DNA from: Methanobacteriota archaeon
Lineage (GTDB): Archaea; Thermoplasmatota; E2; DHVEG-1
DNA length: 64,000 nucleotides
Assembly: GCA_963769885.1 (NCBI GenBank)
Contig: CAVYNH010000001.1
Coordinates: 4,071-68,070, forward strand
Direction of reading: 5' to 3'
The notes under the pieces were generated by a model that was not told the origin of the DNA, searched no databases, and was given only the letters and a program-made list of their open reading frames with translations. Of the stretch, positions 1-16,277 are shown in pieces (the stretch's first letter is position 1; every line of letters starts with the position of its first letter). The position numbers and the translations under genes are program-made.

Positions 1-107
1 AATACAATATTTTTACCATTGTCGGAGGATTGATGTTAAATGCAAACCAACTCGATGAACTAATATTACATTTAAAAAATATTAAAAAAGAGGTCGATAG
101 CATATGA
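1..107 (+). CDS. small hypothetical protein, 3' fragment cut by the window edge
   Basis: The translation (..NIFTIVGGLMLNANQLDELILHLKNIKKEVDSI) equals the C-terminus of the 91-aa ORF 11202..11477 on the other palindrome arm. The stop TGA at 105-107 overlaps the next ATG (ATGA). Confidence 0.5.
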   Translation, partial: YNIFTIVGGLMLNANQLDELILHLKNIKKEVDSI

Positions 108-1405
108 AAGAAAAAGTAAAAAGATCAACCCAAGTGATGATCTATCCTGAAAAGAAAGTAAACAACGCAAGAATTACAACGATCAATTTAAACAATAAAA
201 CAATCAAAACACCCTGTTATATCCCTAAGATAAGAACATCAAAAGAACTTGACATAATTATTGATGAAAAGAAAATAAATGACTATTTCCAAGGAATATT
301 TTTTGATATATTAAATGTATCATCATTGAACAGAGAGAAAACAATATTCAATCCTAAACAAACACGTTTAATCCCAATGATTTCCTATGATTTTAAAACC
401 TTAAAAGGCATCCTCCCTGTTTTCATTGATCCAAACACGGAATATCTTTATCTAAACAACAAGCAAAAAAGAACGCAATATAAAAATCTCCCGTCACTCC
501 CACAAAAAATTTCTGATTTTTTAACCAAATCAACATATGCGAATTATACTAAGATGTGGCAACAACTGTATAACTCAGGAGATACTACTACAGTCATCAA
601 CTGGAATGTAAGAGAACAAAATAAATATCAACCTGATGCGATAGTACCATTCGTACCATTTATCGAGGGTGAAAACTCCCCTCTAATAGATATAGCAATT
701 GATGTAAATAAAAAATCCGCTTTCACTATAGCGGATACCTTTGGTCTTGAACCATCTTTCTATTTTAACCTCAATTATTCAGCATTACGGAATTTAGATC
801 AACTTAAAAAAATCACAGATTTCTTAATGGACGTAGACGGAGAATATGAGAACGTAAAAATCATTTTCATCAAAATAAAATACTTCCCTCTGAATGATAC
901 CGATGTAAGAAGAAACCTCGGAACATTTGCCAAGTCTATTCAGGAAGCGGCTGAATTTAACAATAAATTTACTTTCTTGATAGATGCGGATGCATATGCC
1001 ATACCATGTATATCCACTGGATTTGACGGTTTCATCGAACCATTAAATGGTTACATTAATGATTATGGCGGTAGCGGTAAATCTTCAAAATTCAGATCAT
1101 ATTATGACAGAAAACGAATGGAATTGGTAAAAGCAAATAAGATTAAAAATAAACCGTTAAAATGCGGTTGCCCCCGATGTTCAAAGATTAATGAAGTATA
1201 TGGTGGCGCATTTTTTAACAAGATAGACCCGCATCTATGGAGTGCATGGAGTAAGGAACATTTGTTCTACAGTAGATGCCAAGAAGTAAAAGAAGTCAGG
1301 GACGCAATAAATGACAACGGCATAGCCAGGATACAGGATAAATTCATCAACTCCTCCAAAAAAGATTTCATTGAAATTCTTGGTTACTACACTGATGGAG
1401 ATTAA
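104..1405 (+). CDS. tRNA-guanine transglycosylase (TGT) superfamily protein, DpdA-like
   Basis: 433-aa ORF. The C-terminal CxCxxC (KCGCPRC) is followed about 27 aa later by EHLFYSRCQEVKEVRDAI. This matches the TGT zinc site (CxCxxC...H) and the helix after it. GFDGFIEP resembles the G-x-D-x-FD catalytic strand. A DNA-modifying (DpdA-like) role is inferred from the mobile-element context only. Confidence 0.7.
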   Translation: MKEKVKRSTQVMIYPEKKVNNARITTINLNNKTIKTPCYIPKIRTSKELDIIIDEKKINDYFQGIFFDILNVSSLNREKTIFNPKQTRLIPMISYDFKTLKGILPVFIDPNTEYLYLNNKQKRTQYKNLPSLPQKISDFLTKSTYANYTKMWQQLYNSGDTTTVINWNVREQNKYQPDAIVPFVPFIEGENSPLIDIAIDVNKKSAFTIADTFGLEPSFYFNLNYSALRNLDQLKKITDFLMDVDGEYENVKIIFIKIKYFPLNDTDVRRNLGTFAKSIQEAAEFNNKFTFLIDADAYAIPCISTGFDGFIEPLNGYINDYGGSGKSSKFRSYYDRKRMELVKANKIKNKPLKCGCPRCSKINEVYGGAFFNKIDPHLWSAWSKEHLFYSRCQEVKEVRDAINDNGIARIQDKFINSSKKDFIEILGYYTDGD

Positions 1406-1602
1406 AACAGATTAAATTTTTTACCATCCCTATCGAAAAAACTACATAAGTTTTTTGGCGAAACATATGAGCTTAATGATAGGGATGGCAAGAACATCAA
1501 TGTCATTTGTTTTTAAAATAGTTTGCAAACCTAAAATACACAAAATATTTAAAAAATAAAAAATTACATACATTCAGAAGAATAGAGATAGAGGACATAT
1601 TT

Positions 1603-2112
1603 ATGTGTGAAAAAGAAATAAGACAATACAATTCAATTATTTCAATTTGGGAAAGATGGGATAAAGGATATTGGGACTCATTTCATTTTTATATTATTGT
1701 CATATCCTTATTATTCGCAGGCTATTCTCAAATAATAAATAAAATAAATATTGCAGCAGTAATAGTTTGTTTTACTGGTTTTATAATAAGTATTTTCTGG
1801 TTCTTTATTTTGCATAGAAAATATGCCCATATTCTTATAGCAGAAAATGAAGGAAGAAAATTAGAGACTAAAATATTCACAGATTGTAATGGTTGTTTTA
1901 CTTCAAATAAAAATTTTAAGAAAGGAACATATAACGAAATTGATGAAGCTTTAGGTTGTAGAAAATTCTTAACAAAAATAAGTTCTGGTTTAATTGTATC
2001 ATTTTTTGTACCATTAACATTTACCATAATCTGGTTAACATTAATGATTATAACAACAGTTCATTGGATAATTAAGGATGTCTGTCCTTTCATCATATCA
2101 GTTATAACATAA
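1603..2112 (+). CDS. small polytopic membrane protein (hypothetical)
   Basis: 169-aa ORF with about four hydrophobic segments. An identical copy lies at 9199..9708 (-). Confidence 0.6.
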   Translation: MCEKEIRQYNSIISIWERWDKGYWDSFHFYIIVISLLFAGYSQIINKINIAAVIVCFTGFIISIFWFFILHRKYAHILIAENEGRKLETKIFTDCNGCFTSNKNFKKGTYNEIDEALGCRKFLTKISSGLIVSFFVPLTFTIIWLTLMIITTVHWIIKDVCPFIISVIT

Positions 2113-2116
2113 CCAT

Positions 2117-2216
2117 CTAAATTTCCCACTACTGATTTCCCACTACAGTATTACACAGAACCCTGAACAGGGTTCTGTGTAACCGTGGTTTGGGCAGTTT
2201 AGACTGGGAAATCTAG
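2117..2216. repeat. two abutted, inverted transposon ends separated by 8 bp
   Basis: The sequence ..TTACACAGAACC (ends at 2162), CTGAACAG (2163-2170), GGTTCTGTGTAA.. (starts at 2171) is a perfect 15-bp-arm palindrome at 2151..2182. The arms extend imperfectly to about 46 bp and contain TTTCCCACTAC sub-repeats. Confidence 0.75.
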
Positions 2217-2587: not shown

Positions 2588-2633
2588 TTTTAGGTCCTAC
2601 CGGAATTGAAGAATACTATTTCCCAAAGTATAA

Positions 2634-2786
2634 GGGCCTGGTTCATAATTCGTTTCTCCTGTTGAACAAATCGTAAAGAATCTTGTGAGCTGCTGCTTTC
2701 CTGCTTCTTTTCTTCCAAATCACGCGCACTCTAGAATCAACAGTCTTTTAGACAATTTCTCCTGTTGGGAATTATGAACCAAGCCC
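2634..2786. mobile_element. 153-bp MITE (copy A)
   Basis: Ends are GGGCCTGGTTCATAATTCGTTTCTCCTGTTG and ..TTTCTCCTGTTGGGAATTATGAACCAAGCCC, giving 16-bp terminal inverted repeats GGC(C/T)TGGTTCATAATTC. It is flanked by the 9-bp direct repeat AAAGTATAA (2625-2633 and 2787-2795). A second family member lies at 62328..62480. Confidence 0.75.
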
Positions 2787-2948
2787 AAAGTATAAACGAA
2801 AGGATGGGAATTTTAGTTTTACAAATCCTTTTAACAAGCCGATGGATAAACAGTATTGGTTTCCCCGTATTGCGTCGTTCACCAAACTACGCTCAGTAGA
2901 AGACTTCTGATAAGTCAGGCTTTCTACCAGGGGAGACGGGAAAAAAAT

Positions 2949-3272
2949 ATGGTCGAAGAAACAACAGAGAAGAGAACAGCTGAAAAAGGAAGAACCGATG
3001 AAAACGTGATATATGTTGGAAAGAAACCCCCAATGAGCTATGTGCTTGCAATAGTAACACAGTTCAATAGTGGATCAGATGAAGTAATAATAAAAGCTAG
3101 AGGCAGAACGATTAGCACAGCAGTCGATGCTGCAGAAATAACCAGGAACCGGTTTGTCACAGACGTGAAAGTCAAAGACATAAAAATTAGTACTGAAAGT
3201 ATCACCAATGAGGAAGGGAGAACCTCGAATGTATCTTCAATGGAAATCTGCTTAACGAAAAAGAAAAAATAA
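2949..3272 (+). CDS. albA: chromatin protein Alba
   Basis: The sequence ..[50 protein letters not shown].. is typical Alba. The internal ATG at 2949 was chosen because the upstream part of the ORF looks non-coding. Confidence 0.85.
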
Positions 3273-3317
3273 AGAAGTAATTGAAAAATAAGAGAAGAAA
3301 AAAAAGAGGGATATGGA

Positions 3318-5639
3318 CTAATATTGTAGTCCTAATCTTTGGATTATTTTTTGTAGGATTGGGAACAGATTAGGATGATTCTCTACGAACCTTAGGAATG
3401 GTACGTGAGTATATGCTTTGTTTGTAGGCATAGTCACTGACAATGTCGACTCTGGACCTATTAAACCATTAACATCCTCAGCTCTTGCTTTGATAAAATA
3501 AGTCCCTCGACTACTCCAAGTGTGTGATACCGTTACATCTGTACCAGATGGACTAAAAGCAGTCGTATCAGAGGTATTATCACCCCACTCAATGATGTAA
3601 CGAACTTGATCTCCATCTGGATCTACTGCGTTGAATATATAGTTATACCCTATTCCTACTATTCCACTTGTTGGACCATTTATTGTTGGTGCATTTGGAG
3701 GATTTCCACCGCCACCGGTGAACTTTGCCACAAAAGCATCTCCACCGCCGTTGTAGATTCTGTCGTAGGCTCCTAGTGTCGTCGGAAAATCAGAAGAATA
3801 GGTTGCACCGGTGATGGAGGCTTCCCCATCATCAATCGCAATATCATGGCCATAATCATAATAGGTTCCGCCGAGGTAGGTACTGTAGATAAGGATGTTA
3901 CCACCAGGGGAAAGCTTCGACACAAAAACATCTCCACCGCCGTTGTAGGTGGTGTCGTAGGCTCCTAGTGTCGTCGGGAAATTAGAAGAATTGGTGCCAC
4001 CGGTGATGTAGGCGTTCCCACCAGCAACCGCAATACAATAGCCCCGATCAATATCAGTTCCGCCGAGGTATGTACTATAGTTAAGGGAGTTACCAGTACT
4101 GAGTAACTTTGTCACAAAAGCATCTCCACCGCCGTTGTAGGTGGTGTCGTAGGCTCCTAGTGTCGTCGGGAAATTAGAAGAATAGGTGTAACCGGTGATA
4201 TAGGCGTTCCCATCAGCAACTGCAATACCAAGGCCCTCATCATTAAGGGTTCCGCCGAGGTAGGTACTGTAGATAAGGGAGCTGCCAGTACGGGGAAACT
4301 TTGTCACAAAAACATCATACCCGCCGTTGTAGGTGGGGTCGTAGGCTCCTAGTGTCGGGAAATTAGAAGAATTGGTGCCACCGGTGATGTAGGCGTTCCC
4401 ATCAGCAACTGCAATACCATAGCCATAATCATAACCTATTCCGCCGAGGTATGTACTGTAGGCAAGGGCGTTGCCAGCAGGGCGAAACTGTGTCACAAAA
4501 GCATCACTATAACCGTTGTAGGTGGTGTCGTAGGCGCCGGGTGTTATCGGAAAATCAAAATCAGAAGAATAGGTTGCACCGGTGATGGAGGCGTTCCCAC
4601 CAGCAACTGCAATACCATAGCCATAATCAGAACTGGTTCCGCCGAGATAGGTACGATAGATAAGAATGCTACCATAAGGGGAAAGCTTAGTCACAAAAAC
4701 ATCACAATAACCGTTGTAGGTGGTGTCGTAGGCTCCTAGTGTCGTCGGAAAATCAGAAGACCAGGTGCCACCGGTGATGTAGGCGTTCCCATCATCAACC
4801 GCAATATCATGGCCCCGTTCATTATTGGTTCCGCCGAGGTAGGTACTGTAGATAAGGGCGTTACCAGCAAGGGGAAGCTTCGACACAAAAACATCATACT
4901 GGCCGTTGTAGGTTCTGTCGTAGGCTTGTGGTGTCGTCGGAAAATCAGGAGAATTGGTGTAACCGGTGATGTAGGCGTTCCCATCATCAACCGCAATACC
5001 AAGGCCCTCATCATAATAGGTTCCGCCGAGGTAGGTACTATACGCCAGCGTAGGGTCGATAACAAGTGGATACAACGGATTGTATTCATCCTCGATAGCA
5101 AAACCGAAACTATTTGGCTGTCTGGGTTCGTATCTTCCTATAATCCCTTGTTTTATGCCGTTGATTTCTTGGTATATCACCGGTGATTTCTCGGAAAATA
5201 GACCAAACCGGGTCTCTATCGCAAGGTCACCATCTGATGTTACCCTCATGTTATCAACACCATCATATCGAATAAGAATCGTATCTGGGTCTCCACCAGA
5301 ATAGACAATGAAATCGTATTTCAACGTGTTCTCAATGAAATGGTACTGTAAATCAATTCCAGGGTAGATACCCTTGTACACAACCTCTTGGTAATTCGGA
5401 ACATCGGTATACCACTTCTCAGGGTTATTTCCAATGAAATAGTTGTTATTGTTAGGAAGTCGACGCTCACCGGTAACGACTGCACTGGGGTTTGCGCCAA
5501 CAAACTCCGCGACCGTAGAAATCATCTCCATCTGTTGCGGTTCTCTTACTTGTATTCGTTCCATCGGGTTTTTGTTATCCTTCAAATCGGCACTCTTAGA
5601 ATCGTTTAATTCCCGGAAGAAGTACCGTTTCAGACGCAT
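3318..5639 (-). CDS. SBBP-type beta-propeller repeat protein with C-terminal PKD-like module (5'-truncated)
   Basis: About nine tandem units of YSTYLGG..D.G.GIAVD.GNAYITG.T.S.DFPTT.GAYD..YNG..DVFV.KL are followed by DPDGDQVRYIIEWGD...HTW..G.Y. There is no signal peptide. The first 8 codons lie in the unique palindrome spacer, so the 5' end appears to be lost. Confidence 0.8.
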   Translation of the reverse strand: MRLKRYFFRELNDSKSADLKDNKNPMERIQVREPQQMEMISTVAEFVGANPSAVVTGERRLPNNNNYFIGNNPEKWYTDVPNYQEVVYKGIYPGIDLQYHFIENTLKYDFIVYSGGDPDTILIRYDGVDNMRVTSDGDLAIETRFGLFSEKSPVIYQEINGIKQGIIGRYEPRQPNSFGFAIEDEYNPLYPLVIDPTLAYSTYLGGTYYDEGLGIAVDDGNAYITGYTNSPDFPTTPQAYDRTYNGQYDVFVSKLPLAGNALIYSTYLGGTNNERGHDIAVDDGNAYITGGTWSSDFPTTLGAYDTTYNGYCDVFVTKLSPYGSILIYRTYLGGTSSDYGYGIAVAGGNASITGATYSSDFDFPITPGAYDTTYNGYSDAFVTQFRPAGNALAYSTYLGGIGYDYGYGIAVADGNAYITGGTNSSNFPTLGAYDPTYNGGYDVFVTKFPRTGSSLIYSTYLGGTLNDEGLGIAVADGNAYITGYTYSSNFPTTLGAYDTTYNGGGDAFVTKLLSTGNSLNYSTYLGGTDIDRGYCIAVAGGNAYITGGTNSSNFPTTLGAYDTTYNGGGDVFVSKLSPGGNILIYSTYLGGTYYDYGHDIAIDDGEASITGATYSSDFPTTLGAYDRIYNGGGDAFVAKFTGGGGNPPNAPTINGPTSGIVGIGYNYIFNAVDPDGDQVRYIIEWGDNTSDTTAFSPSGTDVTVSHTWSSRGTYFIKARAEDVNGLIGPESTLSVTMPTNKAYTHVPFLRFVENHPNLFPILQKIIQRLGLQY

Positions 5640-5684
5640 GCCCCCGGGGCAACCGTCTATCTCTGCAAGAACAAAATCGTCTCA

Positions 5685-7993
5685 GTGTTCACCAGAGAAT
5701 TAAACGATTCTAAGAGTGCCGATTTGAAGGATAACAAAAACCCGATGGAACGAATACAAGTAAGAGAACCGCAACAGATGGAGATGATTTCTACGGTCGC
5801 GGAGTTTGTTGGCGCAAACCCCAGTGCAGTCGTTACCGGTGAGCGTCGACTTCCTAACAATAACAACTATTTCATTGGAAATAACCCTGAGAAGTGGTAT
5901 ACCGATGTTCCGAATTACCAAGAGGTTGTGTACAAGGGTATCTACCCTGGAATTGATTTACAGTACCATTTCATTGAGAACACGTTGAAATACGATTTCA
6001 TTGTCTATTCTGGTGGAGACCCAGATACGATTCTTATTCGATATGATGGTGTTGATAACATGAGGGTAACATCAGATGGTGACCTTGCGATAGAGACCCG
6101 GTTTGGTCTATTTTCCGAGAAATCACCGGTGATATACCAAGAAATCAACGGCATAAAACAAGGGATTATAGGAAGATACGAACCCAGACAGCCAAATAGT
6201 TTCGGTTTTGCTATCGAGGATGAATACAATCCGTTGTATCCACTTGTTATCGACCCTACGCTGGCGTATAGTACCTACCTCGGCGGAACCTATTATGATG
6301 AGGGCCTTGGTATTGCGGTTGATGATGGGAACGCCTACATCACCGGTTACACCAATTCTCCTGATTTTCCGACGACACCACAAGCCTACGACAGAACCTA
6401 CAACGGCCAGTATGATGTTTTTGTGTCGAAGCTTCCCCTTGCTGGTAACGCCCTTATCTACAGTACCTACCTCGGCGGAACCAATAATGAACGGGGCCAT
6501 GATATTGCGGTTGATGATGGGAACGCCTACATCACCGGTGGCACCTGGTCTTCTGATTTTCCGACGACACTAGGAGCCTACGACACCACCTACAACGGTT
6601 ATTGTGATGTTTTTGTGACTAAGCTTTCCCCTTATGGTAGCATTCTTATCTATAGTACCTATCTCGGCGGAACCAGTTCTGATTATGGCTATGGTATTGC
6701 AGTTGCTGGTGGGAACGCCTCCATCACCGGTGCAACCTATTCTTCTGATTTTGATTTTCCGATAACACCCGGCGCCTACGACACCACCTACAACGGTTAT
6801 AGTGATGCTTTTGTGACACAGTTTCGCCCTGCTGGCAACGCCCTTGCCTACAGTACATACCTCGGCGGAATAGGTTATGATTATGGCTATGGTATTGCAG
6901 TTGCTGATGGGAACGCCTACATCACCGGTGGCACCAATTCTTCTAATTTCCCGACACTAGGAGCCTACAACCCCACCTACAACGGCGGGTATGATGTTTT
7001 TGTGACAAAGTTTCCCCGGTACTGGCAGCTCCCTTATCTACAGTACCTACCTCGGCGGAACCCTTAATGATGAGGGCCTTGGTATTGCAGTTGCTGATGG
7101 GAACGCCTATATCACCGGTTACACCTATTCTTCTAATTTCCCGACGACACTAGGAGCCTACGACACCACCTACAACGGCGGTGGAGATGCTTTTGTGACA
7201 AAGTTACTCAGGACCTGGTAACTCCCTTAACTATAGTACATACCTCGGCGGAACTGATATTGATCGGGGCTATTGTATTGCGGTTGCTGGTGGGAACGCC
7301 TACATCACCGGTGGCACCAATTCTTCTAATTTCCCGACGACACTAGGAGCCTACGACACCACCTACAACGGCGGTGGAGATGTTTTTGTGTCGAAGCTTT
7401 CCCCTGGTGGTAACATCCTTATCTACAGTACCTACCTCGGCGGAACCTATTATGATTATGGCCATGATATTGCGATTGATGATGGGGAAGCCTCCATCAC
7501 CGGTGCAACCTATTCTTCTGATTTTCCGACGACACTAGGAGCCTACGACAGAATCTACAACGGCGGTGGAGATGCTTTTGTGGCAAAGTTCACCGGTGGC
7601 GGTGGAAATCCTCCAAATGCACCAACAATAAATGGTCCAACAAGTGGAATAGTAGGAATAGGGTATAACTATATATTCAACGCAGTAGATCCAGATGGAG
7701 ATCAAGTTCGTTACATCATTGAGTGGGGTGATAATACCTCTGATACGACTGCTTTTAGTCCATCTGGTACAGATGTAACGGTATCACACACTTGGAGTAG
7801 TCGAGGGACTTATTTTATCAAAGCAAGAGCTGAGGATGTTAATGGTTTAATAGGTCCAGAGTCGACATTGTCAGTGACTATGCCTACAAACAAAGCATAT
7901 ACTCACTTACCATTCCTAAGGTTCGTAGAGAATCATCCTAATCTGTTCCCAATCCTACAAAAAATAATCCAAAGATTAGGACTACAATATTAG
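5685..7993 (+). pseudogene. frameshifted copy of the SBBP repeat protein
   Basis: It is split into ORFs 5685..7067 and 7388..7993 plus an unlisted middle piece. The cause is +1 indels at about 7019 and 7213 relative to 3318..5639. Confidence 0.75.
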
Positions 7994-8038
7994 TCCATAT
8001 CCCTCTTTTTTTTCTTCTCTTATTTTTCAATTACTTCT

Positions 8039-8362
8039 TTATTTTTTCTTTTTCGTTAAGCAGATTTCCATTGAAGATACATTCGAGGTTCTCCCTTCCT
8101 CATTGGTGATACTTTCAGTACTAATTTTTATGTCTTTGACTTTCACGTCTGTGACAAACCGGTTCCTGGTTATTTCTGCAGCATCGACTGCTGTGCTAAT
8201 CGTTCTGCCTCTAGCTTTTATTATTACTTCATCTGATCCACTATTGAACTGTGTTACTATTGCAAGCACATAGCTCATTGGGGGTTTCTTTCCAACATAT
8301 ATCACGTTTTCATCGGTTCTTCCTTTTTCAGCTGTTCTCTTCTCTGTTGTTTCTTCGACCAT
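8039..8362 (-). CDS. albA: chromatin protein Alba (duplicate copy)
   Basis: Identical translation to 2949..3272. Confidence 0.8.
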
Positions 8363-8524
8363 ATTTTTTTCCCGTCTCCCCTGGTAGAAAGCCTGACTTA
8401 TCAGAAGTCTTCTACTGAGCGTAGTTTGGTGAACGACGCAATACGGGGAAACCAATACTGTTTATCCATCGGCTTGTTAAAAGGATTTGTAAAACTAAAA
8501 TTCCCATCCTTTCGTTTATACTTT

Positions 8525-8677
8525 GGGCTTGGTTCATAATTCCCAACAGGAGAAATTGTCTAAAAGACTGTTGATTCTAGAGTGCGCGTGATTTGGAAGA
8601 AAAGAAGCAGGAAAGCAGCAGCTCACAAGATTCTTTACGATTTGTTCAACAGGAGAAACGAATTATGAACCAGGCCC
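8525..8677. mobile_element. 153-bp MITE (mirror copy of copy A)
   Basis: Reverse complement of 2634..2786 within the palindrome. Confidence 0.7.
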
Positions 8678-8723
8678 TTATACTTTGGGAAATAGTATTC
8701 TTCAATTCCGGTAGGACCTAAAA

Positions 8724-9005
8724 CTAAGCTAGATGTATATTCAATAATTGTTGTAGTTCTTTCTCTATGAGTTCAAATCTTTGTTTTCTTTCTTGAAAAA
8801 GATTGGGGAAAGCAGTTGAATTTTCAAAATCAGATACATTATTTTTATTGACTTCCGCAAGAATTTTTTCAATATCTTGATCGGTTAATTTTGCTTTTTT
8901 CAGTCTTGTGTTTATGTTTTTTATAGCACGTTGTATAGTCGTTCCTCTATTACAAACATAGGATTCTACCAAGCCTCTGCATTCTTTATAAGCTTCAACA
9001 CCCAT
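8724..9005 (-). CDS. hypothetical protein (duplicate of 2306..2587)
   Basis: Identical translation on the other arm. Confidence 0.5.
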   Translation of the reverse strand: MGVEAYKECRGLVESYVCNRGTTIQRAIKNINTRLKKAKLTDQDIEKILAEVNKNNVSDFENSTAFPNLFQERKQRFELIEKELQQLLNIHLA

Positions 9006-9198
9006 ATTTACCTCCTTTAAATTTGAAAGCAAATCTACATCATCTTGTTTGTTTTATCATTTTCCTTTTATCAGCGACTCTCGGAGAAACCAACCTAGAT
9101 TTCCCAGTCTAAACTGCCCAAACCACGGTTACACAGAACCCTGTTCAGGGTTCTGTGTAATACTGTAGTGGGAAATCAGTAGTGGGAAATTTAGATGG

Positions 9199-9708
9199 TT
9201 ATGTTATAACTGATATGATGAAAGGACAGACATCCTTAATTATCCAATGAACTGTTGTTATAATCATTAATGTTAACCAGATTATGGTAAATGTTAATGG
9301 TACAAAAAATGATACAATTAAACCAGAACTTATTTTTGTTAAGAATTTTCTACAACCTAAAGCTTCATCAATTTCGTTATATGTTCCTTTCTTAAAATTT
9401 TTATTTGAAGTAAAACAACCATTACAATCTGTGAATATTTTAGTCTCTAATTTTCTTCCTTCATTTTCTGCTATAAGAATATGGGCATATTTTCTATGCA
9501 AAATAAAGAACCAGAAAATACTTATTATAAAACCAGTAAAACAAACTATTACTGCTGCAATATTTATTTTATTTATTATTTGAGAATAGCCTGCGAATAA
9601 TAAGGATATGACAATAATATAAAAATGAAATGAGTCCCAATATCCTTTATCCCATCTTTCCCAAATTGAAATAATTGAATTGTATTGTCTTATTTCTTTT
9701 TCACACAT
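9199..9708 (-). CDS. small polytopic membrane protein (duplicate of 1603..2112)
   Basis: Identical translation on the other arm. It lies inside the TIR-bounded element 9149..14542. Confidence 0.6.
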   Translation of the reverse strand: MCEKEIRQYNSIISIWERWDKGYWDSFHFYIIVISLLFAGYSQIINKINIAAVIVCFTGFIISIFWFFILHRKYAHILIAENEGRKLETKIFTDCNGCFTSNKNFKKGTYNEIDEALGCRKFLTKISSGLIVSFFVPLTFTIIWLTLMIITTVHWIIKDVCPFIISVIT

Positions 9709-9905
9709 AAATATGTCCTCTATCTCTATTCTTCTGAATGTATGTAATTTTTTATTTTTTAAATATTTTGTGTATTTTAGGTTTGCAAACTATTTTAAAA
9801 ACAAATGACATTGATGTTCTTGCCATCCCTATCATTAAGCTCATATGTTTCGCCAAAAAACTTATGTAGTTTTTTCGATAGGGATGGTAAAAAATTTAAT
9901 CTGTT

Positions 9906-11205
9906 TTAATCTCCATCAGTGTAGTAACCAAGAATTTCAATGAAATCTTTTTTGGAGGAGTTGATGAATTTATCCTGTATCCTGGCTATGCCGTTGTCAT
10001 TTATTGCGTCCCTGACTTCTTTTACTTCTTGGCATCTACTGTAGAACAAATGTTCCTTACTCCATGCACTCCATAGATGCGGGTCTATCTTGTTAAAAAA
10101 TGCGCCACCATATACTTCATTAATCTTTGAACATCGGGGCAACCGCATTTTAACGGTTTATTTTTAATCTTATTTGCTTTTACCAATTCCATTCGTTTTC
10201 TGTCATAATATGATCTGAATTTTGAAGATTTACCGCTACCGCCATAATCATTAATGTAACCATTTAATGGTTCGATGAAACCGTCAAATCCAGTGGATAT
10301 ACATGGTATGGCATATGCATCCGCATCTATCAAGAAAGTAAATTTATTGTTAAATTCAGCCGCTTCCTGAATAGACTTGGAAATGTTCCGAGGTTTCTTC
10401 TTACATCGGTATCATTCAGAGGGAAGTATTTTATTTTGATGAAAATGATTTTTACGTTCTCATATTCTCCGTCTACGTCCATTAAGAAATCTGTGATTTT
10501 TTTAAGTTGATCTAAATTCCGTAATGCTGAATAATTGAGGTTAAAATAGAAAGATGGTTCAAGACCAAAGGTATCCGCTATAGTGAAAGCGGATTTTTTA
10601 TTTACATCAATTGCTATATCTATTAGAGGGGAGTTTTCACCCTCGATAAATGGTACGAATGGTACTATTGCATCAGGTTGATATTTATTTTGTTCTCTTA
10701 CATTCCAGTTGATGACTGTAGTAGTATCTCCTGAGTTATACAGTTGTTGCCACATCTTAGTATAATTCGCATATGTTGATTTGGTTAAAAAATCAGAAAT
10801 TTTTTGTGGGAGTGACGGCAGATTTTTATATTGCGTTCTTTTTTGCTTGTTGTTTAGATAAACATATTCCGTGTTTGGATCAATGAAAACAGGGAGGATG
10901 CCTTTTAAGGTTTTAAAATCATAGGAAATCATTGGGATTAAACGTGTTTGTTTAGGATTGAATATTGTTTTCTCTCTGTTCAATGATGATACATTTAATA
11001 TATCAAAAAATATTCCTTGGAAATAGTCATTTATTTTCTTTTCATCAATAATTATGTCAAGTTCTTTTGATGTTCTTATCTTAGGGATATAACAGGGTGT
11101 TTTGATTGTTTTATTGTTTAAATTGATCGTTGTAATTCTTGCGTTGTTTACTTTCTTTTCAGGATAGATCATCACTTGGGTTGATCTTTTTACTTTTTCT
11201 TTCAT
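9906..11205 (-). pseudogene. frameshifted copy of the TGT/DpdA-like gene
   Basis: It is broken into ORFs 10330..11205, 10085..10333 and 9906..10148. The cause is 1-nt deletions near 10381 (ttgcc to ttcc) and 10136 (a C5 run becomes C4) relative to 104..1405. Confidence 0.75.
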
Positions 11206-11477
11206 ATGCTATCGACCTCTTTTTTAATATTTTTTAAATGTAATATTAGTTCATCGAGTTGGTTTGCATTTAACATCAATCCTCCGACAATGGTAAAAAT
11301 ATTGTATTCATCTCTTGTTTTTTCTTGGATATACACAAATTTACCAAAAGGGTTTTCGATCAATTGAAAGTTATAATATTTTTCACCTATTTTTACATCT
11401 TTTATTAAAGTTGGATGGGCTACTTTTCCATTAGGATAATAGAGGAAATTTCTTTGACTAAACTGTCGCCTATACAA
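11202..11477 (-). CDS. hypothetical protein (TTG start)
   Basis: 91-aa ORF whose stop overlaps the start of the TGT-like gene. Its frame opens 24 nt before the stop of the upstream 77-aa ORF, so the two could be one frameshifted gene. Confidence 0.45.
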   Translation of the reverse strand: MYRRQFSQRNFLYYPNGKVAHPTLIKDVKIGEKYYNFQLIENPFGKFVYIQEKTRDEYNIFTIVGGLMLNANQLDELILHLKNIKKEVDSI

Positions 11478-11500
11478 CTCTCTGATCGCTGTAAGGTAAT

Positions 11501-11692
11501 CTAAAGTTGAGATGCGGTTCTGCGATCAATCCCTGCAACATCAGATACTTGAGGTAAACTAATTCCTTGTGGATTATCTTTAACAACTTTTAATATGATT
11601 GAACAAGCAAATCTTTTTCTATCTTCGGGAGACATTTTTTTTAATTCCTCTTTTGAAAATCCGATTTGACTTCTATTTATTGCGTCATCCAT
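11501..11692 (-). CDS. small HTH DNA-binding protein (putative)
   Basis: MDDAINRSQIGFSKEELKKMSPEDRKRFACSIILKVVKDNPQGISLPQVSDVAGIDRRTASQL has a helix-turn-helix-like C-terminal half. An internal ATG was chosen as start. Confidence 0.45.
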   Translation of the reverse strand: MDDAINRSQIGFSKEELKKMSPEDRKRFACSIILKVVKDNPQGISLPQVSDVAGIDRRTASQL

Positions 11693-11904
11693 TGTTTTTC
11701 TCCTTGTAATTTTATATACAACATTAAGATGCACATACCTTGTGCATAGTTATGTTGTACAGTTGATGTTGCACATAAACGGTTATTATATATATAAAGA
11801 TAACTGATAGCTTTATATACTGACAATGTATTATAAAACTTGGCGAAATATATGGGCAACAAAATAGATATTAAAGAAATGGTTAACGCAGAAAAGCTAG
11901 AGGC

Positions 11905-13010
11905 ATGACACTTTTAGAACAAGGAATAGAACCAACCGAGATTAATCCGCATACGTGGATAGTGCCAAGTCAGACAGGAAATGGAACATATCAAGTTGAT
12001 GTCCAGATGCGGTATTGGCATTGTACATGTCCAGATTTTGAACTAAAAGTATTGTAAACACATCAATGCGGTTAAGATATGGAAGAACCTGAAAGAGAAA
12101 TTTGAACAAATACATCTCAAAGTGAAACAGAAAATTACGTTAACAGATATTGATGTTGATTGCTGTAAGTTTTGTCATTCAACAGAAGTGACAAAATATG
12201 GGATGAAAAATAGTAAACAAGTCTATTTCTGTAAGACCTGTAATCGAAGATTTGTCAATAATGTTGACTTCGAGAATATGAAATATAACCCTAAGATAAT
12301 CGCATTAACGCTTGATCTGTATTTCAAAGGAATAAGTCTCAGGAAAATAAGCCAACATCTAAAACAATTCTATGAACTGAATATAAGCCATAAATCAGTT
12401 TACAACTGGATAGAAAAATATGTAGGGATAATGAATGAATACGTCAATGAAATACAACCTGATATTGGGGAAGTATGGCATACTGACGAAATGATGATTA
12501 AAATAGATGGCTCATGGAGACCTCTGGAATGTCATGGACGAACGTACACGGTTTCAACTCGCTTCTGTGGTATCAAAAGAACGATATGTTAAAGATGCAC
12601 GTATGGTATTTCAGAAGGCAAAAAAGAACTGCGGTGGACGCAAGCCGAAGTTCATGGTTACCGATGGTCTACCCGCATATAGGGATGCGGTGAACAAGGA
12701 GTTTAAAACTAATACTGATGAAACAGAACACCTATGGAATGTGGGGTTACAGCACCATCCAAATAACAACCACATTGAAAGATTACATGGGACAATACGG
12801 GATCGTGAAAAAACATTTAGAGGGTTAAAGATAGAAAGTACCCCTATTATTGATGGGAACAGGATTTACTACAATTTCATAAAACCACATGAAAATCTTG
12901 ATGGTAAAACTCCGAGTGAGGAATCGGGAATAATCATTGAAGGAAATAATAAATGGCTTACTCTTATGAAAAAATCAATTCAGTACCAAAAGGCTAAAAA
13001 TCAGAATTGA
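11905..13010 (+). pseudogene. IS6-like DDE transposase with SWIM and zinc-ribbon N-terminus, at least two frame breaks
   Basis: The DDE signature is VWHTDEMMIKIDG, MVTDGLPAYRDAV and NNHIERLHGTIRDR. The frame shifts near 12515 (ORFs 12122..12592 and 12507..13010 overlap). It shifts again near 12050, where the SWIM-like motif W-H-C-T-C-P..CKH is split between frames. Confidence 0.65.
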
Positions 13011-13041
13011 AAAGTTATATAATTCAAATGGAGATTTAAAA

Positions 13042-14484
13042 ATGGAAAACATGCAAATAAAAACCGATACTATTTACTGCGGAGATTGCCTTGATGTATT
13101 GAGGCGATTTCCAGAAGGATTTGTAAATTTAATTTATCTTGATCCACCATTTTCAAGTGGCAGGATTTATAATATAGTGTTTGGCACTAATAGCGAAAAA
13201 AAAGCCTTTGATGATCGATGGAAAGGTGGTATTCATCATTATATTGAATATATGAGGGAAAGACTCGAACTCTGCCATCGTGTTTTGGACAGTAAAGGGT
13301 CGATTTATTTACATTGCGATAGTCATGCAAGTCATTATCTCAAAATAGTGATGGATGATATTTTTGGTTATAATAATTTTAAGAATGAAATAATTTGGAA
13401 AAGAAAAGATGCTCAAAGTTTCACCAATAAATATGGAGCTATGCATGATACGATTTTATTTTATACAAAATCAAATGAGTACACGTTTAACAAAGCATTA
13501 GAAGAGTACATTCCACTTAGCGAAGAAACCGCAGATACTTGGTATAAATATGAAGAAATTGCATCGAAAAATATTATTAATCGTCTTGGGAAAAAAATTG
13601 AAAAAGGACATGTAAGACGATACAATAAAGGTGATATAAGCGCACCTGGGGATAGGCAAGGTACGGCAGCGCATTATAAATGGAACGGAAAATATCCACC
13701 AAAGGGGAGACATTGGGAATATACGGTTGAGGTGATGGGGAGATTGGAAAGAGAAAAACGTCTTGCTTATTCTAAGAATGGAAGGGTTTATGAAAAGCGA
13801 TATTTAGATGAAACAAAGGGGACACCTCCTCAAGACATTTGGACTGACATTTCTATGTTGCGTGGAATGGGTAAACATAGTGAAAAAAGTGAATGGATGG
13901 AATACCCAACTCAAAAACCAAAACGTTTACTTGAAAGAATAATACGGATTTCCTCAAATGAAAATGACATTGTACTTGATCCTTTCTGTGGCTGTGGTAC
14001 GACTATCGTTGCAGCACATTATTTGAGGAGAAAATGGATTGGTATTGATATTTCACCTACTGCATGTAATGTCATAAAAAATCGTATGGGAAATGTAAAA
14101 AAAATGGGATTGTTTGTCGTGAAAAACATTCCTATAATTGGACTCCCAAAGACAGAAGATGATCTTAGAAAATTGCATCCTTTCGAGTTTGAAAACTGGG
14201 TATGTGATGTTCTTTTCGCTATTCAGACGAAGAAAGCAAAAGACATGGGTATTGATGGATATACTATTGATGGAACAGTTCTCCAAGCAAAACAAATGGA
14301 TAAAGTAGGAAGACCCATAGTAGATAATTTTGAGGCATCAATGAAGCGAGCTAAAACCAATAAAGGCATAGTTATTGCTTTTAGTTTTACTAAAGATGCT
14401 TTTGAAGAGGTTGCAAGAATAAAAAGCGAGAATATAGATATTACATTAAGATCAGTAAAAGAATTATTAGAAATGGGTTTCTAA
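13042..14484 (+). CDS. beta-class N6A/N4C DNA methyltransferase fused to a C-terminal Mrr-like restriction endonuclease domain
   Basis: Motif IV is IYLDPPF near the N-terminus and motif I is VLDPFCGCGTTIVAA near residue 310. The C-terminal roughly 110 aa reads ..FENWVCDVL..GIDGY..LQAKQ.., a D..(E/Q)xK nuclease-like pattern. Confidence 0.75.
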   Translation: MENMQIKTDTIYCGDCLDVLRRFPEGFVNLIYLDPPFSSGRIYNIVFGTNSEKKAFDDRWKGGIHHYIEYMRERLELCHRVLDSKGSIYLHCDSHASHYLKIVMDDIFGYNNFKNEIIWKRKDAQSFTNKYGAMHDTILFYTKSNEYTFNKALEEYIPLSEETADTWYKYEEIASKNIINRLGKKIEKGHVRRYNKGDISAPGDRQGTAAHYKWNGKYPPKGRHWEYTVEVMGRLEREKRLAYSKNGRVYEKRYLDETKGTPPQDIWTDISMLRGMGKHSEKSEWMEYPTQKPKRLLERIIRISSNENDIVLDPFCGCGTTIVAAHYLRRKWIGIDISPTACNVIKNRMGNVKKMGLFVVKNIPIIGLPKTEDDLRKLHPFEFENWVCDVLFAIQTKKAKDMGIDGYTIDGTVLQAKQMDKVGRPIVDNFEASMKRAKTNKGIVIAFSFTKDAFEEVARIKSENIDITLRSVKELLEMGF

Positions 14485-14621
14485 TCTGATACCACTACAG
14501 ATTTTCCACTACTAAATTTCCACTACAGTATTACACAGCACCCTGTTCAGATAGGTTTATATAGAAGTGTCCATATGCTGGGAATGCTTTTAACCTACTT
14601 ATAAAGGAGGCATAGAACAGT

Positions 14622-16277
14622 ATGATGGCTGGAGGACAGACACCCATAATCATCCTTAAAGAAGGCACGAAACGCGAAAAAGGCAAAGGCGCCCAACTCA
14701 ACAACATCATGGCAGCCCGCGCAATCTCCGACGCCGTGAAATCCACGCTCGGACCCAAAGGCATGGACAAGATGCTCGTCGACTCCATGGGCGACGTCGT
14801 CATCACCAACGACGGCGCCACCATCCTCAAAGAAATCGACGTCGAACACCCCGCCGCAAAAATGATCGTCGAAGTCGCCAAAGCCCAAGACGAACAATGC
14901 GGCGACGGCACCACCACCGCCGTGATCCTCACCGGAGAACTCCTTCGCAACGCCGGCGAGCTCATCGAACAGAACATCCATCCCACCGTCATCACGGGCG
15001 GATACCAGAAGGCGGCCATAAAGGCGGTCGAAATCCTCAACAAGATGGCGATCCCGATCAAGCCCAACGACAAAAAAACGCTGAAGAACATCGCCATGAC
15101 CTCCATGGCCAGCAAGGGAGCCAGCTCCGCAAAAGCAATCCTCTCCGACGTCGTCGTCGACGCGGTCACCAGCGTCGCCGAGAAAATCGATGGACGCACC
15201 GAAGTCGACATGGACAACATCCAGATCCAGAAGAAACAGGGCGGTAGCATCAACGATACCAAGATCATCAAGGGCATCATCCTCGACAAGGAACGCGTCC
15301 ACGAAGGCATGCCCAAGCACGTCCACAACGCCAAGATCGCCTTGGTCAACGCCGCTTTAGAGATTAAGAAGACCGAGGTCGACGCCCGCATCCAGATCCA
15401 GGACCCCAGCCAACTCCAGGCCTTCCTCGATGAGGAAGAGACCATGCTGAAGAAGATGGTTGAAAAAATCAAGAAGAGCGGGGCCAACGTCCTCGTCTGC
15501 CAGAAGGGCATCGATGACATCGCCCAGCACTTCCTCGCCAAAGATGGCATCTACGCGGTCCGGCGCGCCAAGAAATCCGACATGGACAAGCTCGCCAAGG
15601 CCACCGGCGCAAAGATCGTCGCCAACCTCGACAACCTCAGCGTCAAGGACCTCGGACAGGCTGGCGCCGTCGAAGAACAGAAGATCGGCGACGACCGCAT
15701 GACCTTTGTTGTCGACTGCAAGAACCCCAAGGCCGTCAGCATCCTCATCCGCGGCAGCACCGAACACATCGTCGACGAGCTTGACCGCGGCATGCACGAC
15801 GCCCTCTTCGTCGTCAAAGTCGCCCTCGAGGACGGGAAGATGACCGCCGGCGGCGGCAGCGCAGCCACCGAGATCGCCATGCAGCTGCGCGAGTACGCCA
15901 CCACTGTCGGCGGCCGCGAGCAGATGGCGATCGAGGCGTTCGCCAACGCGGTCGAAGTCGTCCCCAAGACCCTGGCGGAGAACGCGGGTCTTGACCCCAT
16001 CGATATGATGATCAACGTCCGCCGCGCCCACAAGAAGGGCAACAAGTACGCTGGCATCGACGTCTTCAACGGCAAGATCACCGACATGATTGACAACAAC
16101 GTCGTCGAGCCGCTGCGCGTCAGCGTCCAGGAAGTCACGGCATCCACCGAAGCCGCCAACATGATCCTGCGCATCGACGACATCATCGCCTCCAAGAGCG
16201 GTGGCCCAGCGCCCGGCGGCCCCGGCGGCATGCCAGGCGGCCCCGGCGGTATGGGCGGTGACATGGACGAGTACTAA
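14622..16277 (+). CDS. ths: thermosome subunit (group II chaperonin)
   Basis: 551 aa with GDGTTTAVILTGELL and a C-terminal GGM-type tail. AAGGAGG lies 12 nt upstream. Confidence 0.95.
   Translation: MMAGGQTPIIILKEGTKREKGKGAQLNNIMAARAISDAVKSTLGPKGMDKMLVDSMGDVVITNDGATILKEIDVEHPAAKMIVEVAKAQDEQCGDGTTTAVILTGELLRNAGELIEQNIHPTVITGGYQKAAIKAVEILNKMAIPIKPNDKKTLKNIAMTSMASKGASSAKAILSDVVVDAVTSVAEKIDGRTEVDMDNIQIQKKQGGSINDTKIIKGIILDKERVHEGMPKHVHNAKIALVNAALEIKKTEVDARIQIQDPSQLQAFLDEEETMLKKMVEKIKKSGANVLVCQKGIDDIAQHFLAKDGIYAVRRAKKSDMDKLAKATGAKIVANLDNLSVKDLGQAGAVEEQKIGDDRMTFVVDCKNPKAVSILIRGSTEHIVDELDRGMHDALFVVKVALEDGKMTAGGGSAATEIAMQLREYATTVGGREQMAIEAFANAVEVVPKTLAENAGLDPIDMMINVRRAHKKGNKYAGIDVFNGKITDMIDNNVVEPLRVSVQEVTASTEAANMILRIDDIIASKSGGPAPGGPGGMPGGPGGMGGDMDEY

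Follow-up and report, generated by a model that had tools for sequence, protein, structure and literature searches.

The segment at positions 9149–14542 of the window, which is the whole stretch of 64,000 nt analysed (contig CAVYNH010000001.1 of assembly GCA_963769885.1, contig positions 4,071–68,070, forward strand), is read here, with a probability of about 0.85, as an autonomous passenger-carrying transposon of the IS6 family, belonging to a clade that is common in Thermoplasmatota and has distant members in Methanoregula. The target choice of this clade is non-random, with a fixed spacing to TATA boxes. The element resides in an uncultured Thermoplasmatota archaeon and has five genes, as shown in Table 1; its length is 5394 bp in the window and 5404 bp in L101, an independently assembled contig (Logan ERR10755944) in which all five genes are intact.

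Table 1. Features of the element, its surroundings in the window, and related elements.
Feature	Position in window, or length	Strand	Remarks
Mirrored partial element copy (8xMP gene and intact TGT-like gene)	1..2162	-	part of the palindrome 1-5612 / 5697-11308
Outward-facing end of older truncated family element X	9095..9140 (tip 9129-9140)	-	exactly the 8-bp repeat between X and IRL
Left 8-bp target-site duplication CTGTTCAG	9141..9148	.	identical to 14543-14550; junction also in L101
IRL	9149..9198	+	tip GGTTCTGTGTAA, then subterminal GTAGTGGGAAA repeats with ~14-nt spacing
8xMP-family membrane protein, 169 aa	9199..9708	-	Pfam PF24838, E 5.5e-10
Predicted TGT-superfamily protein, 433 aa	9906..11205	-	frameshifted near 10140 and 10381; intact at 104-1405(+) and in L101
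Partner protein, 163 aa	11202..11692	-	stop overlaps TGT-like start; frameshifted near 11505
Transposase, 388 aa when intact	11852..13010	+	SWIM Zn finger, IS1/IS1595-type Zn ribbon, HTH, IS6 DDE domain
N6_N4 DNA methyltransferase + Mrr_cat restriction-endonuclease fusion, 480 aa	13042..14484	+	PF01555 E 8e-50; PF04471 E 2e-8
IRR	14493..14542	-	tip GGTGCTGTGTAA, then three GTAGTGG(A)AAA repeats
Right 8-bp duplication CTGTTCAG, native target DNA	14543..14550	.	L099 homology restarts at 14547, within the 8-mer
Thermosome TATA box TTTATATAG, putative target landmark	14556..14564	+	starts 5 nt past the duplication
L102 element	4850 bp		perfect 8-bp duplication TGGTCGCA
L103 element	6685 bp		perfect 8-bp duplication GGTTTTTT
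L107 element	5098 bp		perfect 8-bp duplication TGTTGGTT
L108 element	4626 bp		perfect 8-bp duplication CTATTTAT
L072 element	5347 bp		perfect 8-bp duplication GTTTTCAA

Boundaries and family of the element

Both ends of the element extend over about 50 nt and share the tip GGTnCTGTGTAA. The left end begins with GGTTCTGTGTAATACTGTAGTGG at 9149, and the right end, GGTGCTGTGTAATACTGTAGTGG as reverse complement, ends at 14542, with one mismatch in 23 positions; a repeat search of the window gives the ends as an inverted pair of 50 nt with 86% complementarity. When the terminal 23-mer was searched with up to three mismatches, three matches were found in the window and none in 100 shuffles, the third match, at 2140–2162, being part of the mirrored copy. 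The original prediction had placed terminal inverted repeats from 9149 and to 14542 between identical 8-bp repeats, and both are read directly in the sequence. The same junctions are present in L101, which indicates that they are not an artefact of the window assembly. The GC content rises from 0.33 at 14001–14500 to 0.53–0.64 past 14500 (about 33% inside the right end and about 58% outside it); the jump in composition that had been described at the right repeat is therefore seen at that boundary only, because the left flank is likewise GC-poor. The layout formed there by X and the left end, in which two ends are separated by 8 bp, was found identically in L108.

The only transposase inside the element had been called IS6-like, and the profile searches agree. 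The NF033587 transpos_IS6 model (cutoff 125) scores the intact L101 transposase at 137.6 bits and the window copy, after reconstruction, at 126.4 bits, and Pfam DDE_Tnp_IS240 is matched with an E-value of 4e-15. The transposase clade comprises 862 matches at E<1e-20, one of which carries the NCBI name "IS6 family transposase [Ca. Thermoplasmatota]". IS6 elements are characterized by an 8-bp direct duplication, short inverted repeats of 15–20 bp, a GG tip, and cTGTt and caaa motifs (PMC7986276). The present element has in common with IS6/IS26 the duplication, a GG tip and the CTGT motif at positions 5–8, whereas it lacks the caaa motif and its conserved ends, which include three subterminal repeats, span about 50 nt, compared with 14–20 bp in IS6. 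Members of IS6 have one ORF and a length of 0.7–0.9 kb, a few reaching 1.46 kb, and the sole member recorded with a passenger gene is ISDsp3 (PMC7986276). The element departs from this simple organization with 5394 bp and five genes, so that it is far larger than classical IS6 elements, as had been pointed out, and its size and gene number mark it as a passenger-carrying derivative (tIS) rather than a classical IS.

Relatives of the transposase lie in elements of 4.6–6.7 kb with the same ends at five other insertion sites, each flanked by a perfect 8-bp duplication, and 18 columns are invariant over the 14 aligned ends of the family. The relatives occupy chromosomes and virus- or plasmid-like contigs; one copy, L001, has no duplication, as is also known for IS6/IS26 copies after rearrangement. 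Empty sites were found in L099 and L008/L009/L011 for the L102 element and in L041/L062 for the L072 element, with the flanks contiguous in these relatives. These five elements, together with the clean empty sites, establish movement as a unit, in line with the mobile package described in the original prediction. For the window copy itself, homology to the empty relative L099 restarts inside the right 8-mer, and a clean two-sided empty site is lacking because the left flank is another element.

These observations bear on a different origin, in which the 5.4 kb derive from an integrated plasmid, an integrated virus or a genomic island that simply includes an IS6 transposase. The terminal repeats would then be solo ends left by unrelated events, and the agreement of the two 8-mers would arise from a near-palindromic CTGTTCAG that extends the inverted repeat. 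The left flank is also foreign DNA, the relatives L001–L005 and L103–L106 are in virus- or plasmid-like contigs, and CTGTTCAG agrees with its own reverse complement at six of eight positions; however, the direct match is eight of eight, and the duplications of the five other elements are perfect without being palindromic. In addition, the window and L001 cease to be similar at the element ends, and in the empty relatives described above the DNA on either side of L102 and L072 is contiguous. Such an origin is already largely refuted and is considered very improbable.

Target sites beside TATA boxes

The TATA box lies exactly 5 nt beyond the duplication in five of the six independent insertions, which include both orientations of the element; four of the five are at thermosome (chaperonin) promoters and one is at a ribosomal protein S8e promoter. 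In L103, a TATA-like motif lies at 7 nt, not 5 nt. The background frequency of TTTAWATA is 0.14–0.76 per kb, and the chance probability of the +5 pattern is below 1e-14 by a rough hand estimate. The sample is small, consisting of six insertions and three remnants, with four of the six at one kind of promoter. One remnant is X in the window, another is el2 in L108, and the third is a 2.4-kb element carried by L059; all are at the same position.

Insertion could be random in itself, with the promoter-proximal position arising through later selection for a harmless "safe harbour" or for IS-driven expression. Since the thermosome is encoded by essential genes with high expression, the cell would tolerate an insertion that lies just outside the promoter, and the exact spacing is absent in L103 and L001. 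Selection would, however, permit any site upstream of the BRE, whereas a spacing of exactly 5 nt was observed in five events with unrelated 8-mers and in both orientations, and the same 8-bp site was hit again by second insertions in two lineages. We therefore regard selection after random insertion as an unlikely cause of the pattern.

In the proposed process of targeted insertion, the transposase would bind each end at its tip and at the subterminal GTAGTGGRAAA repeats and would join the ends to the target with an 8-bp stagger, the cut falling 5–12 nt upstream of the TATA box, usually at the highly conserved thermosome promoter sequence TTTATATAGAAG/C. The insertion harms neither the promoter nor the gene, and of the two duplication copies the one nearer the promoter is still a target, which explains the pile-ups of two ends separated by 8 bp with older truncated copies. 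By analogy with IS26 and other IS6 elements, movement would be replicative, via cointegrates between the chromosome, plasmids and viruses; the transposition chemistry and the cointegrate pathway are assigned from family membership only, and the occurrence of the family on chromosomes as well as on virus- or plasmid-like contigs, with one copy lacking a duplication, is circumstantial in this respect. The TATA box may be read by the transposase, or its SWIM domain, on the TATA DNA itself or on bound TBP/TFB.

Yeast Ty3 is targeted by TFIIIB (TBP and Brf1) through a retroviral-type integrase acting on cDNA, and archaeal TFB is a homologue of TFIIB/Brf1. By analogy, the element would resemble Ty3 in integrating a short, constant distance away from DNA occupied by TBP together with a TFIIB-family factor, although Ty3 is a eukaryotic retrotransposon. 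It is conceivable, at somewhat less than even odds, that this IS6 clade reads the archaeal core promoter (TATA, or bound TBP/TFB) via its extra SWIM domain and integrates at a fixed 5-bp offset, as a DNA-transposon counterpart of the Ty3–TFIIIB system and a natural "safe-harbour" system, and that its TGT-fold protein and partner may write a non-methyl (7-deazaguanine-type) mark on DNA. Transposons of the Tn7 type insert at the attachment site attTn7 downstream of glmS, at a fixed offset from a conserved sequence, leave the gene undamaged and carry defence cargo. The fixed offset, the spared gene and the cargo including defence genes are analogous in the present element, whereas its machinery is a single IS6-type DDE protein, its insertions occur in both orientations, and a promoter element rather than a coding sequence serves as its landmark. 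Domain searches found no TnsA/B/C or TnsD homologues among the element proteins, and the likeness to Tn7 is functional only.

IS6 elements have no marked target preference (PMC7986276), in contrast to the present transposase, which has an extra N-terminal SWIM domain and inserts at a fixed distance from the TATA box. The clade thus departs from minimal IS6 in inserting with single-nucleotide precision beside a TATA box, repeatedly at the thermosome gene, and in its length of 5–7 kb with an exchange slot for restriction-modification genes and a TGT-fold/partner pair maintained across archaeal classes. If the targeting is mechanistic, it would be a mode of target selection undescribed in archaea in the literature searched, would open a direct way to study how a transcription pre-initiation site can be read by a DDE transposase, and would offer a candidate tool with which to insert DNA site-specifically in archaea.

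Cargo genes

The cargo had been listed as a membrane protein, a TGT/DpdA-like gene, two small genes and a methyltransferase–nuclease fusion. The membrane protein (8xMP family), the fusion and the TGT-fold protein are retained, while the "two small genes" are one frameshifted gene of 163 aa. The 8xMP gene is present in L108 and absent from L001 and L102. In the fusion, PF01555 covers residues 28–346 and Mrr_cat (PF04471) residues 375–478, and PADLOC assigns MTase_II. Comparison within the family shows that a constant slot directly 3' of the transposase holds a restriction-modification module of varying type, with five types found (MTase-Mrr, BglII+MTase, ThaI+MTase, Type ISP, and MT-A70+BglII). 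Mobile restriction-modification systems and methyltransferase–endonuclease fusions are likewise exchangeable cassettes on mobile elements, whereas here the cassette is fixed 3' of an IS6 transposase and swapped among the five types. The module would provide defence and post-segregational stabilization, and the element shows defence genes travelling between archaeal chromosomes and viruses or plasmids.

The TGT-like profile matches archaeosine TGT (ArcTGT, PDB 1iq8) with an E-value of 4e-13. The AF2 model has a pLDDT of 91, and the top 50 Foldseek matches are all TGTs, with 1iq8 at an E-value of 8e-11 and a TM-score of 0.62. By this modelled fold, the protein is a TGT-superfamily TIM barrel with a CxCxxC...H zinc site; the zinc motif C354/C356/C359/H386 is invariant in its family, and the aspartates D109 and D308 are near-invariant. 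The scores are under the curated thresholds (17.7 bits against a cutoff of 26.3 for PF01702, and 20 against 47.6 for TIGR00449), and Pfam TGT is matched at E<0.01 by only four of the 72 members of the family. The TIM barrel, the zinc site, the N-terminal beta-hairpin motif ending in TPxYxP and the two aspartates are shared with DpdA and archaeosine TGT, from which the protein differs in an identity of only 11–13%, its sub-threshold Pfam score and its 163-aa partner. DpdB/DpdC and preQ0-synthesis genes were absent from the element and its relatives, and PADLOC gave no hit for such a system; the original label is therefore narrowed from TGT/DpdA-like to the TGT superfamily.

The partner protein, which had no family match in profile searches, appears from reading the sequence by eye to be a winged-helix DNA binder. 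Its homologues lie beside the TGT-like gene in L001 (94%), L103 (34%) and L072 (29%), and the pair, which usually occupies the arm opposite the restriction-modification slot, recurs even in an element of Methanoregula with a transposase of only 37% identity; this recurrence across the family indicates that the pair is not arbitrary cargo. The L102 and L108 elements are without the TGT-like gene, which is thus dispensable for targeting and movement. The pair might form a base-exchange (7-deazaguanine-type) nucleic-acid modification module that draws on the host preQ0 pool. Alternatively, at less than even odds, the substrate of the TGT-like protein may be tRNA or another RNA, the protein being for example a decoy or an ArcTGT of altered specificity, or the protein may be a non-catalytic nucleic-acid binder, rather than a DNA-modifying analogue of DpdA. 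Its nearest structures are tRNA enzymes (ArcTGT and bacterial and human TGT, TM 0.5–0.62) and viral DpdA-like models fit less well (TM ≤0.5), and the missing Dpd and preQ0 genes and the low Pfam score point the same way. On the other hand, the protein, with 433 aa compared with 582 aa, is without the C-terminal tRNA-binding domains of ArcTGT, and its gene is coupled to the putative winged-helix partner and adjoins restriction-modification genes on a mobile element, which is circumstantial. The TGT-like family, with about 120 uncharacterized clusters at 50% identity, is worth testing for DNA modification.

Mirrored copy and frameshifts

Positions 1–5612 of the window are the reverse complement of 5697–11308 with 99.8% identity, around a centre of 84 bp (5613–5696) inside a gene. 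The mirrored duplicate, the X end, the three frameshifted genes, the SWIM domain and start of the transposase, the low GC content of the left flank, and the target-site rule had been overlooked by the earlier reader. The mirrored copy is probably an assembly duplicate or misassembly. IS6 elements can make inversions with inverted copies (PMC7986276), and the arms differ at 11 positions, as might a genuine product of transposition or of genomic inverted duplication; we consider this improbable, since 6.9 kb of DNA outside the element are mirrored as well and the pivot is an intragenic centre, an arrangement that transposition does not produce. Moreover, arm A is 100% identical to L101, whereas the differences in arm B are rich in indels and clustered at GTAC, a pattern that would result from joining an accurate contig, as one arm, to a long-read fill of the same region, as the other.

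The TGT-like gene, the partner gene and the transposase (near 11889, 12046–12051 and 12515–12519) are frameshifted in the window, with about six frameshifting differences from L101. Because all five genes are intact in L101, these frameshifts look like sequencing errors; the window copy would be dead if they were real. The discrepancies between the window and the independent assembly fall at GTAC in eight of 17 events (P = 2.5e-8); this is the only hint of an exchange of guanine in DNA for a 7-deazaguanine base, and a methyltransferase could be the cause just as well.

Ends, composition and proteins of the element

As read directly from the sequence, the 8-mer CTGTTCAG occurs at both borders of the element, the left end (IRL) begins with GGTTCTGTGTAATACTGTAGTGG, and the reverse complement of the right end (IRR) is GGTGCTGTGTAATACTGTAGTGG; this reading reproduced all coordinates of the original prediction. 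A repeat search of the window gave IRL and IRR as an inverted pair of 50 nt with 86% complementarity. The 23-mer tip, with at most three mismatches, was matched three times in the window and 0 times in 100 shuffles; the third match in the window is part of a mirror arm. The predicted jump from AT-rich to GC-rich DNA at the right repeat is seen in the GC content, which is 0.27-0.39 within the element and 0.53-0.64 from position 14501 on.

Positions of features in the window
Feature	Position	Detail
Mirror arm A	1-5612	reverse complement of arm B
Third TIR match	2140-2162	within mirror arm
SBBP/PKD-repeat gene	3318-5639 (-) / 5685-7993	773 aa, 46% GC
Mirror centre	5613-5696	84 nt
Mirror arm B	5697-11308	
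Alba gene	8039-8378	
Foreign segment	8379-9140	MITE, 102-aa ORF, outward end
MITE copies	8525-8677 and 62328-62480	~153 bp; 18-nt terminal inverted repeats GGGCTTGGTTCATAATTC
102-aa ORF	8724-9032 (-)	good RBS
Outward-facing end	9095-9140	GGTTCTGTGTAACCGTGG...
Left and right 8-mer	9141-9148 and 14543-14550	CTGTTCAG
Element	9149-14542	IRL begins 9149, IRR ends 14542
tRNA-Pro(CGG)	38229-38301	
Island	within 38229-46000	44% GC
tRNA 3' part and recurrences	38284-38361; ~40360-40433 and 42134-42174	
IS200-like Y1 transposase	41080-41619	in island
Direct repeats	48800-50340	period ~297 nt, 71-74% identity

The intact transposase scores 137.6 bits against the NCBI IS6 equivalog model (cutoff 125), in agreement with the predicted IS6-like enzyme. 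Its N-terminus is formed by a SWIM zinc finger, and it further contains a zinc ribbon of the IS1/IS1595 type. The finding of a mobile element is real, and its interpretation as an IS6-like transposon was essentially right in view of the IS6 model, the duplication and the related elements described below: it is an IS6-family element that carries passengers, has long structured ends and inserts in a promoter-specific manner. Members of the IS6 family measure 0.7-0.9 kb, with seven reaching 1.23-1.46 kb; they generate 8-bp repeats, their tips are GG and include a cTGTt motif, and a single member carries one passenger gene (PMC7986276). The present clade agrees with this family in its enzyme and its duplication, but its multi-gene elements of 4.6-6.7 kb do not correspond to a simple IS, and are larger than classical IS6 elements, as had been claimed.

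The predicted methyltransferase-nuclease fusion and membrane protein were recovered as a 480-aa protein in which an N6_N4 DNA methyltransferase is fused to an Mrr_cat nuclease domain, and as a member of the Pfam 8xMP family, on which the literature collection searched contained nothing. The TGT-like protein of 433 aa has only seven close relatives among the 5.8 billion proteins searched, and a profile search gave 121 clusters at 50% identity, mostly of 400-470 aa. A profile of 72 sequences matched the archaeosine tRNA-guanine transglycosylase 1iq8 with an E value of 4e-13, the match covering the CxCxxC...H zinc site as well as a strand motif at the N-terminus. The AlphaFold model from the 72-sequence alignment reached a pLDDT of 91 (that from a 7-sequence alignment, at 50.6, was discarded); its best 50 PDB neighbours were all TGTs, and the TM score to 1iq8 was 0.62. 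The protein lies below the Pfam and TIGRFAM TGT thresholds, its gene neighbourhood contains no DpdB/C and no preQ0-synthesis genes, and it resembles viral DpdA-like models less closely than tRNA enzymes. Because profile and model both match TGTs, while the scores are sub-threshold, DpdB/C are absent and the fit to viral DpdA is poorer, the modelled protein is best described as a divergent TGT-superfamily enzyme. Of the original TGT/DpdA-like label, the superfamily assignment is upheld by the 1iq8 profile and model matches, and the DpdA-like part stays hypothetical. A homologue with 54% identity in contigs L006/L007 has neither a transposase nor a partner gene nearby, and therefore the TGT-like gene also exists outside these elements.

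The gene of the 163-aa partner protein lies upstream of the TGT-like gene and overlaps its start codon. This protein had zero matches in Pfam or NCBIfam and was predicted, by eye, to be a winged-helix DNA binder. PADLOC gave no match for the TGT-like, partner or 8xMP proteins, and Pfam gave none for the cargo of the related elements L102 and L107.

Related elements and the spacing to the TATA box

At E<1e-20, 862 proteins related to the transposase were found, of about 390 aa and mainly from Thermoplasmatota metagenomes, and all of those placed on long contigs lie within elements of 4.6-6.7 kb sharing the window-type ends. In an alignment of 14 ends, 18 positions are invariant, and the ends have in common the tip GGTnCTGTGTAA and a subterminal GTAGTGGRAAA motif repeated three times; the second copies of the TIR that were sought are thus present at the ends of these elements. 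The Thermoplasmatota elements have transposases 79-95% identical to that of L101, an independently assembled contig of the window locus, and differ in cargo, the slot 3' of the transposase holding five different restriction-modification types across the family. The DNA similarity between the window and L001 ends at the element ends. As judged from these sequences, the elements form a family moving as a unit, and the restriction-modification slot varies while the unit moves with the same ends, which corresponds to the mobile DNA-modification/restriction package originally proposed.

Related elements and their insertion sites (promoter side: duplication, 5-nt spacer, TATA box)
Element	Length	Duplication	Promoter side	Downstream gene	Cargo
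Window		CTGTTCAG	CTGTTCAG ATAGG TTTATATAG	thermosome	
L102	4850 bp	TGGTCGCA	TGCGACCA CAATA TTTATATAG	thermosome	DUF8203, MTase, ThaI nuclease
L103/104/106	6685 bp	GGTTTTTT			TGT-like, partner protein, Type ISP enzyme 1021 aa
L107	5098 bp	TGTTGGTT	AACCAACA TATTC TTTAAATAT	ribosomal protein S8e	distant TGT-like and others
L108/109	4626 bp	CTATTTAT	L108: ATAAATAG TTAGC TTTATATAG	thermosome	8xMP, PIN, MT-A70 MTase, BglII-like nuclease
L001-L005	4886 bp	none			BglII-like nuclease, MTase, partner protein, TGT-like 95% identity
L072	5347 bp	GTTTTCAA	GTTTTCAA CAACG TTTATATAG	thermosome	partner homologue 29%, TGT-like E 7e-30 vs family profile

The element of a Methanoregula MAG (L072), with ends GGTTCTGTTGCG..., has a transposase that is merely 37% identical and retains the SWIM domain. 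The TIR pattern GGTNCTGTGTAANNNNNNAGTGGRAAWT, which was validated on the window and the loci and then applied to IMG/VR alone, had 0 matches there, as had the transposase and the TGT-like protein. The contigs of the family elements L001-L005 and L103-L106 consist of many small unannotated ORFs, together with an integrase of phage type and a gene for a pilin-like protein, and are probably archaeal viruses or plasmids shuttling the transposon.

As shown in the table, the flanks of five of the six insertions have a common layout, in which exactly 5 nt separate the duplication from a TATA box on one side. On the virus- or plasmid-like contig L103, TTTATGTT is found at 7 nt, not 5, and in L001 the duplication is absent. 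The target 8-mers have no consensus among the insertions, and both orientations of the element are found. TTTAWATA has a background density of 0.14-0.76 per kb, and the chance probability of 5/6 insertions at one exact offset is <1e-14, as a hand estimate from few placed insertions. Since L102 and L108 were recovered via the similarity of the transposase and not of the thermosome, their position involves no selection bias.

Across the thermosome loci L008-L087, L099 and L100, whose MAGs are labelled Thermoplasmatota, Methanosarcina, Methanothrix, Methanoregula, Bathyarchaeia and Woesearchaeota, the TATA region TTTATATAGAAG/C of the thermosome promoter hardly varies, which makes it a durable landmark. 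Once an element has inserted, the duplication copy next to the promoter retains the 5-nt spacing, and therefore these 8 bp can receive a second element. The order of older element, 8 bp, newer element, 8 bp and promoter is found in the window, where the truncated element X precedes the present one, and in L108 (9317/9326). In Methanoregula sp. UBA247 (L059, 7490-9925), this position 5 nt ahead of the thermosome TATA box is occupied by a 2.4-kb non-autonomous element that lacks a transposase. Its ends are GGTTCTGATAAGTT..., and its duplication is degenerate (ATTTTAGA / TTTTTACA).

The TGT-like/partner pair was considered as the target selector and ruled out: L102 and L108 lack the pair and are still inserted at the +5 position, so that it is dispensable for targeting. 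A literature search of incomplete coverage found nothing relevant on archaeal TATA-directed insertion, on SWIM-IS6 transposases or on DpdA on archaeal transposons, and because of that coverage the silence is weak evidence of novelty.

Empty sites, left flank and mirror duplication

In L099 and L100, relatives without the element at this site and with a thermosome that is 94% identical, the thermosome gene is preceded by Alba. Identity to their sequences is 91.5% for the Alba gene of the window and 92.6% for 14547-14721, which indicates that the window has 8379-14546 where these relatives have 429 nt of intergenic sequence. The homology resumes inside the right 8-mer; therefore, the right copy is native target DNA. 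The empty-site check was thus clean on the right side only for the window copy, and by synteny the GTDB relatives at 81-87% thermosome identity provided no clean empty site for it. It was fully clean for two other elements, as the flanks of L102 are contiguous in L099, L008, L009 and L011, and those of L072 in L041 and L062. L099, empty at the thermosome site, has a solo family-type end (GGTTCTGTGTAACGGAGAATTGGG...) at 5850 (-) beside a 169-aa gene.

Directly left of the left 8-mer, the outward-facing end shares its first 12 nt with the IRL tip. The foreign segment that it closes is, judging by its sequence, the stump of the older family element X, the other end of which is missing. The two MITE copies are ~80% identical; the repeats at their borders are TATACTTT for copy 1 and GTATACTG for copy 2.

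A self-comparison showed that arms A and B mirror each other with 99.8% identity around a centre inside the 5' end of the SBBP/PKD-repeat gene. Four indels distinguish the arms, each breaking ORFs in arm B alone. Three genes of the element are interrupted in the window: the TGT-like gene and the transposase lie in three pieces each, and the small upstream gene in two. Regarding the two small genes originally predicted, the upstream gene is present, but the two are pieces of one broken gene, which is intact (163 aa) in L101. This contig of 6146 nt, from the Logan assembly of ERR10755944, was recovered by transposase look-up and has the order outward end, CTGTTCAG, element, CTGTTCAG and thermosome gene start, with all five genes intact (8xMP 169 aa, TGT-like 433, partner 163, transposase 388 and MTase-Mrr fusion 480).

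L101 is 100% identical to arm A across 2663 nt, and differs from arm B, which is contiguous with the chromosome, and the element by 17 events comprising 25 nt, none of them past 12519; insertions and deletions account for more than half of these 25 positions. Positions no more than 3 nt away from a GTAC make up 3.3% of the sequence and contain eight of the 17 events (P = 2.5e-8), and 8/30 GTAC sites in 5697-12519 are affected. By this comparison, arm A is probably the accurate contig, and 5697-12519 the same region filled in from long reads and joined the wrong way round. The discrepancies at GTAC look like a long-read basecalling error caused by base modification, and hint that GTAC is modified in the native DNA of the window organism. 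Whatever the origin of these differences, the junctions are genuine and an intact element exists. Arm A was ruled out as independent evidence of transposition because the mirror contains flanking non-element DNA.

The SBBP gene encodes a DUF7948 + SBBP beta-propeller + PKD protein and has internal repeats of ~190 nt with 81-84% identity. Its GC content is between those of the element and the chromosome, and it has no synteny with relatives.

Proposed mechanism and other features of the window

The ends, the duplication length, the mobility as a unit and the target spacing are observed, and membership in the IS6 family suggests DDE chemistry and replicative cointegrate formation. With these, one could account for the occurrence of the family on both chromosomes and extrachromosomal contigs, the lack of a duplication in L001, and the truncation of older neighbours by adjacent deletion. 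As the spacing suggests, the transpososome may read the TATA box or factors bound to it, and the extra SWIM domain of the transposase is an obvious candidate for this role. Defence and stabilisation of the carrier are the probable functions of the restriction-modification cassette. In archaea, preQ0 is the substrate of ArcTGT, and the TGT-like pair may modify nucleic acid with the preQ0 pool of the host.

Elsewhere in the window, the tRNA-Pro gene is followed by an island that encodes, in addition to the Y1 transposase, DUF11 and DUF4394 proteins, and the 3' part of the tRNA recurs twice, like tandem att sites. The direct repeats further downstream presumably belong to a gene for a repeat-domain protein.
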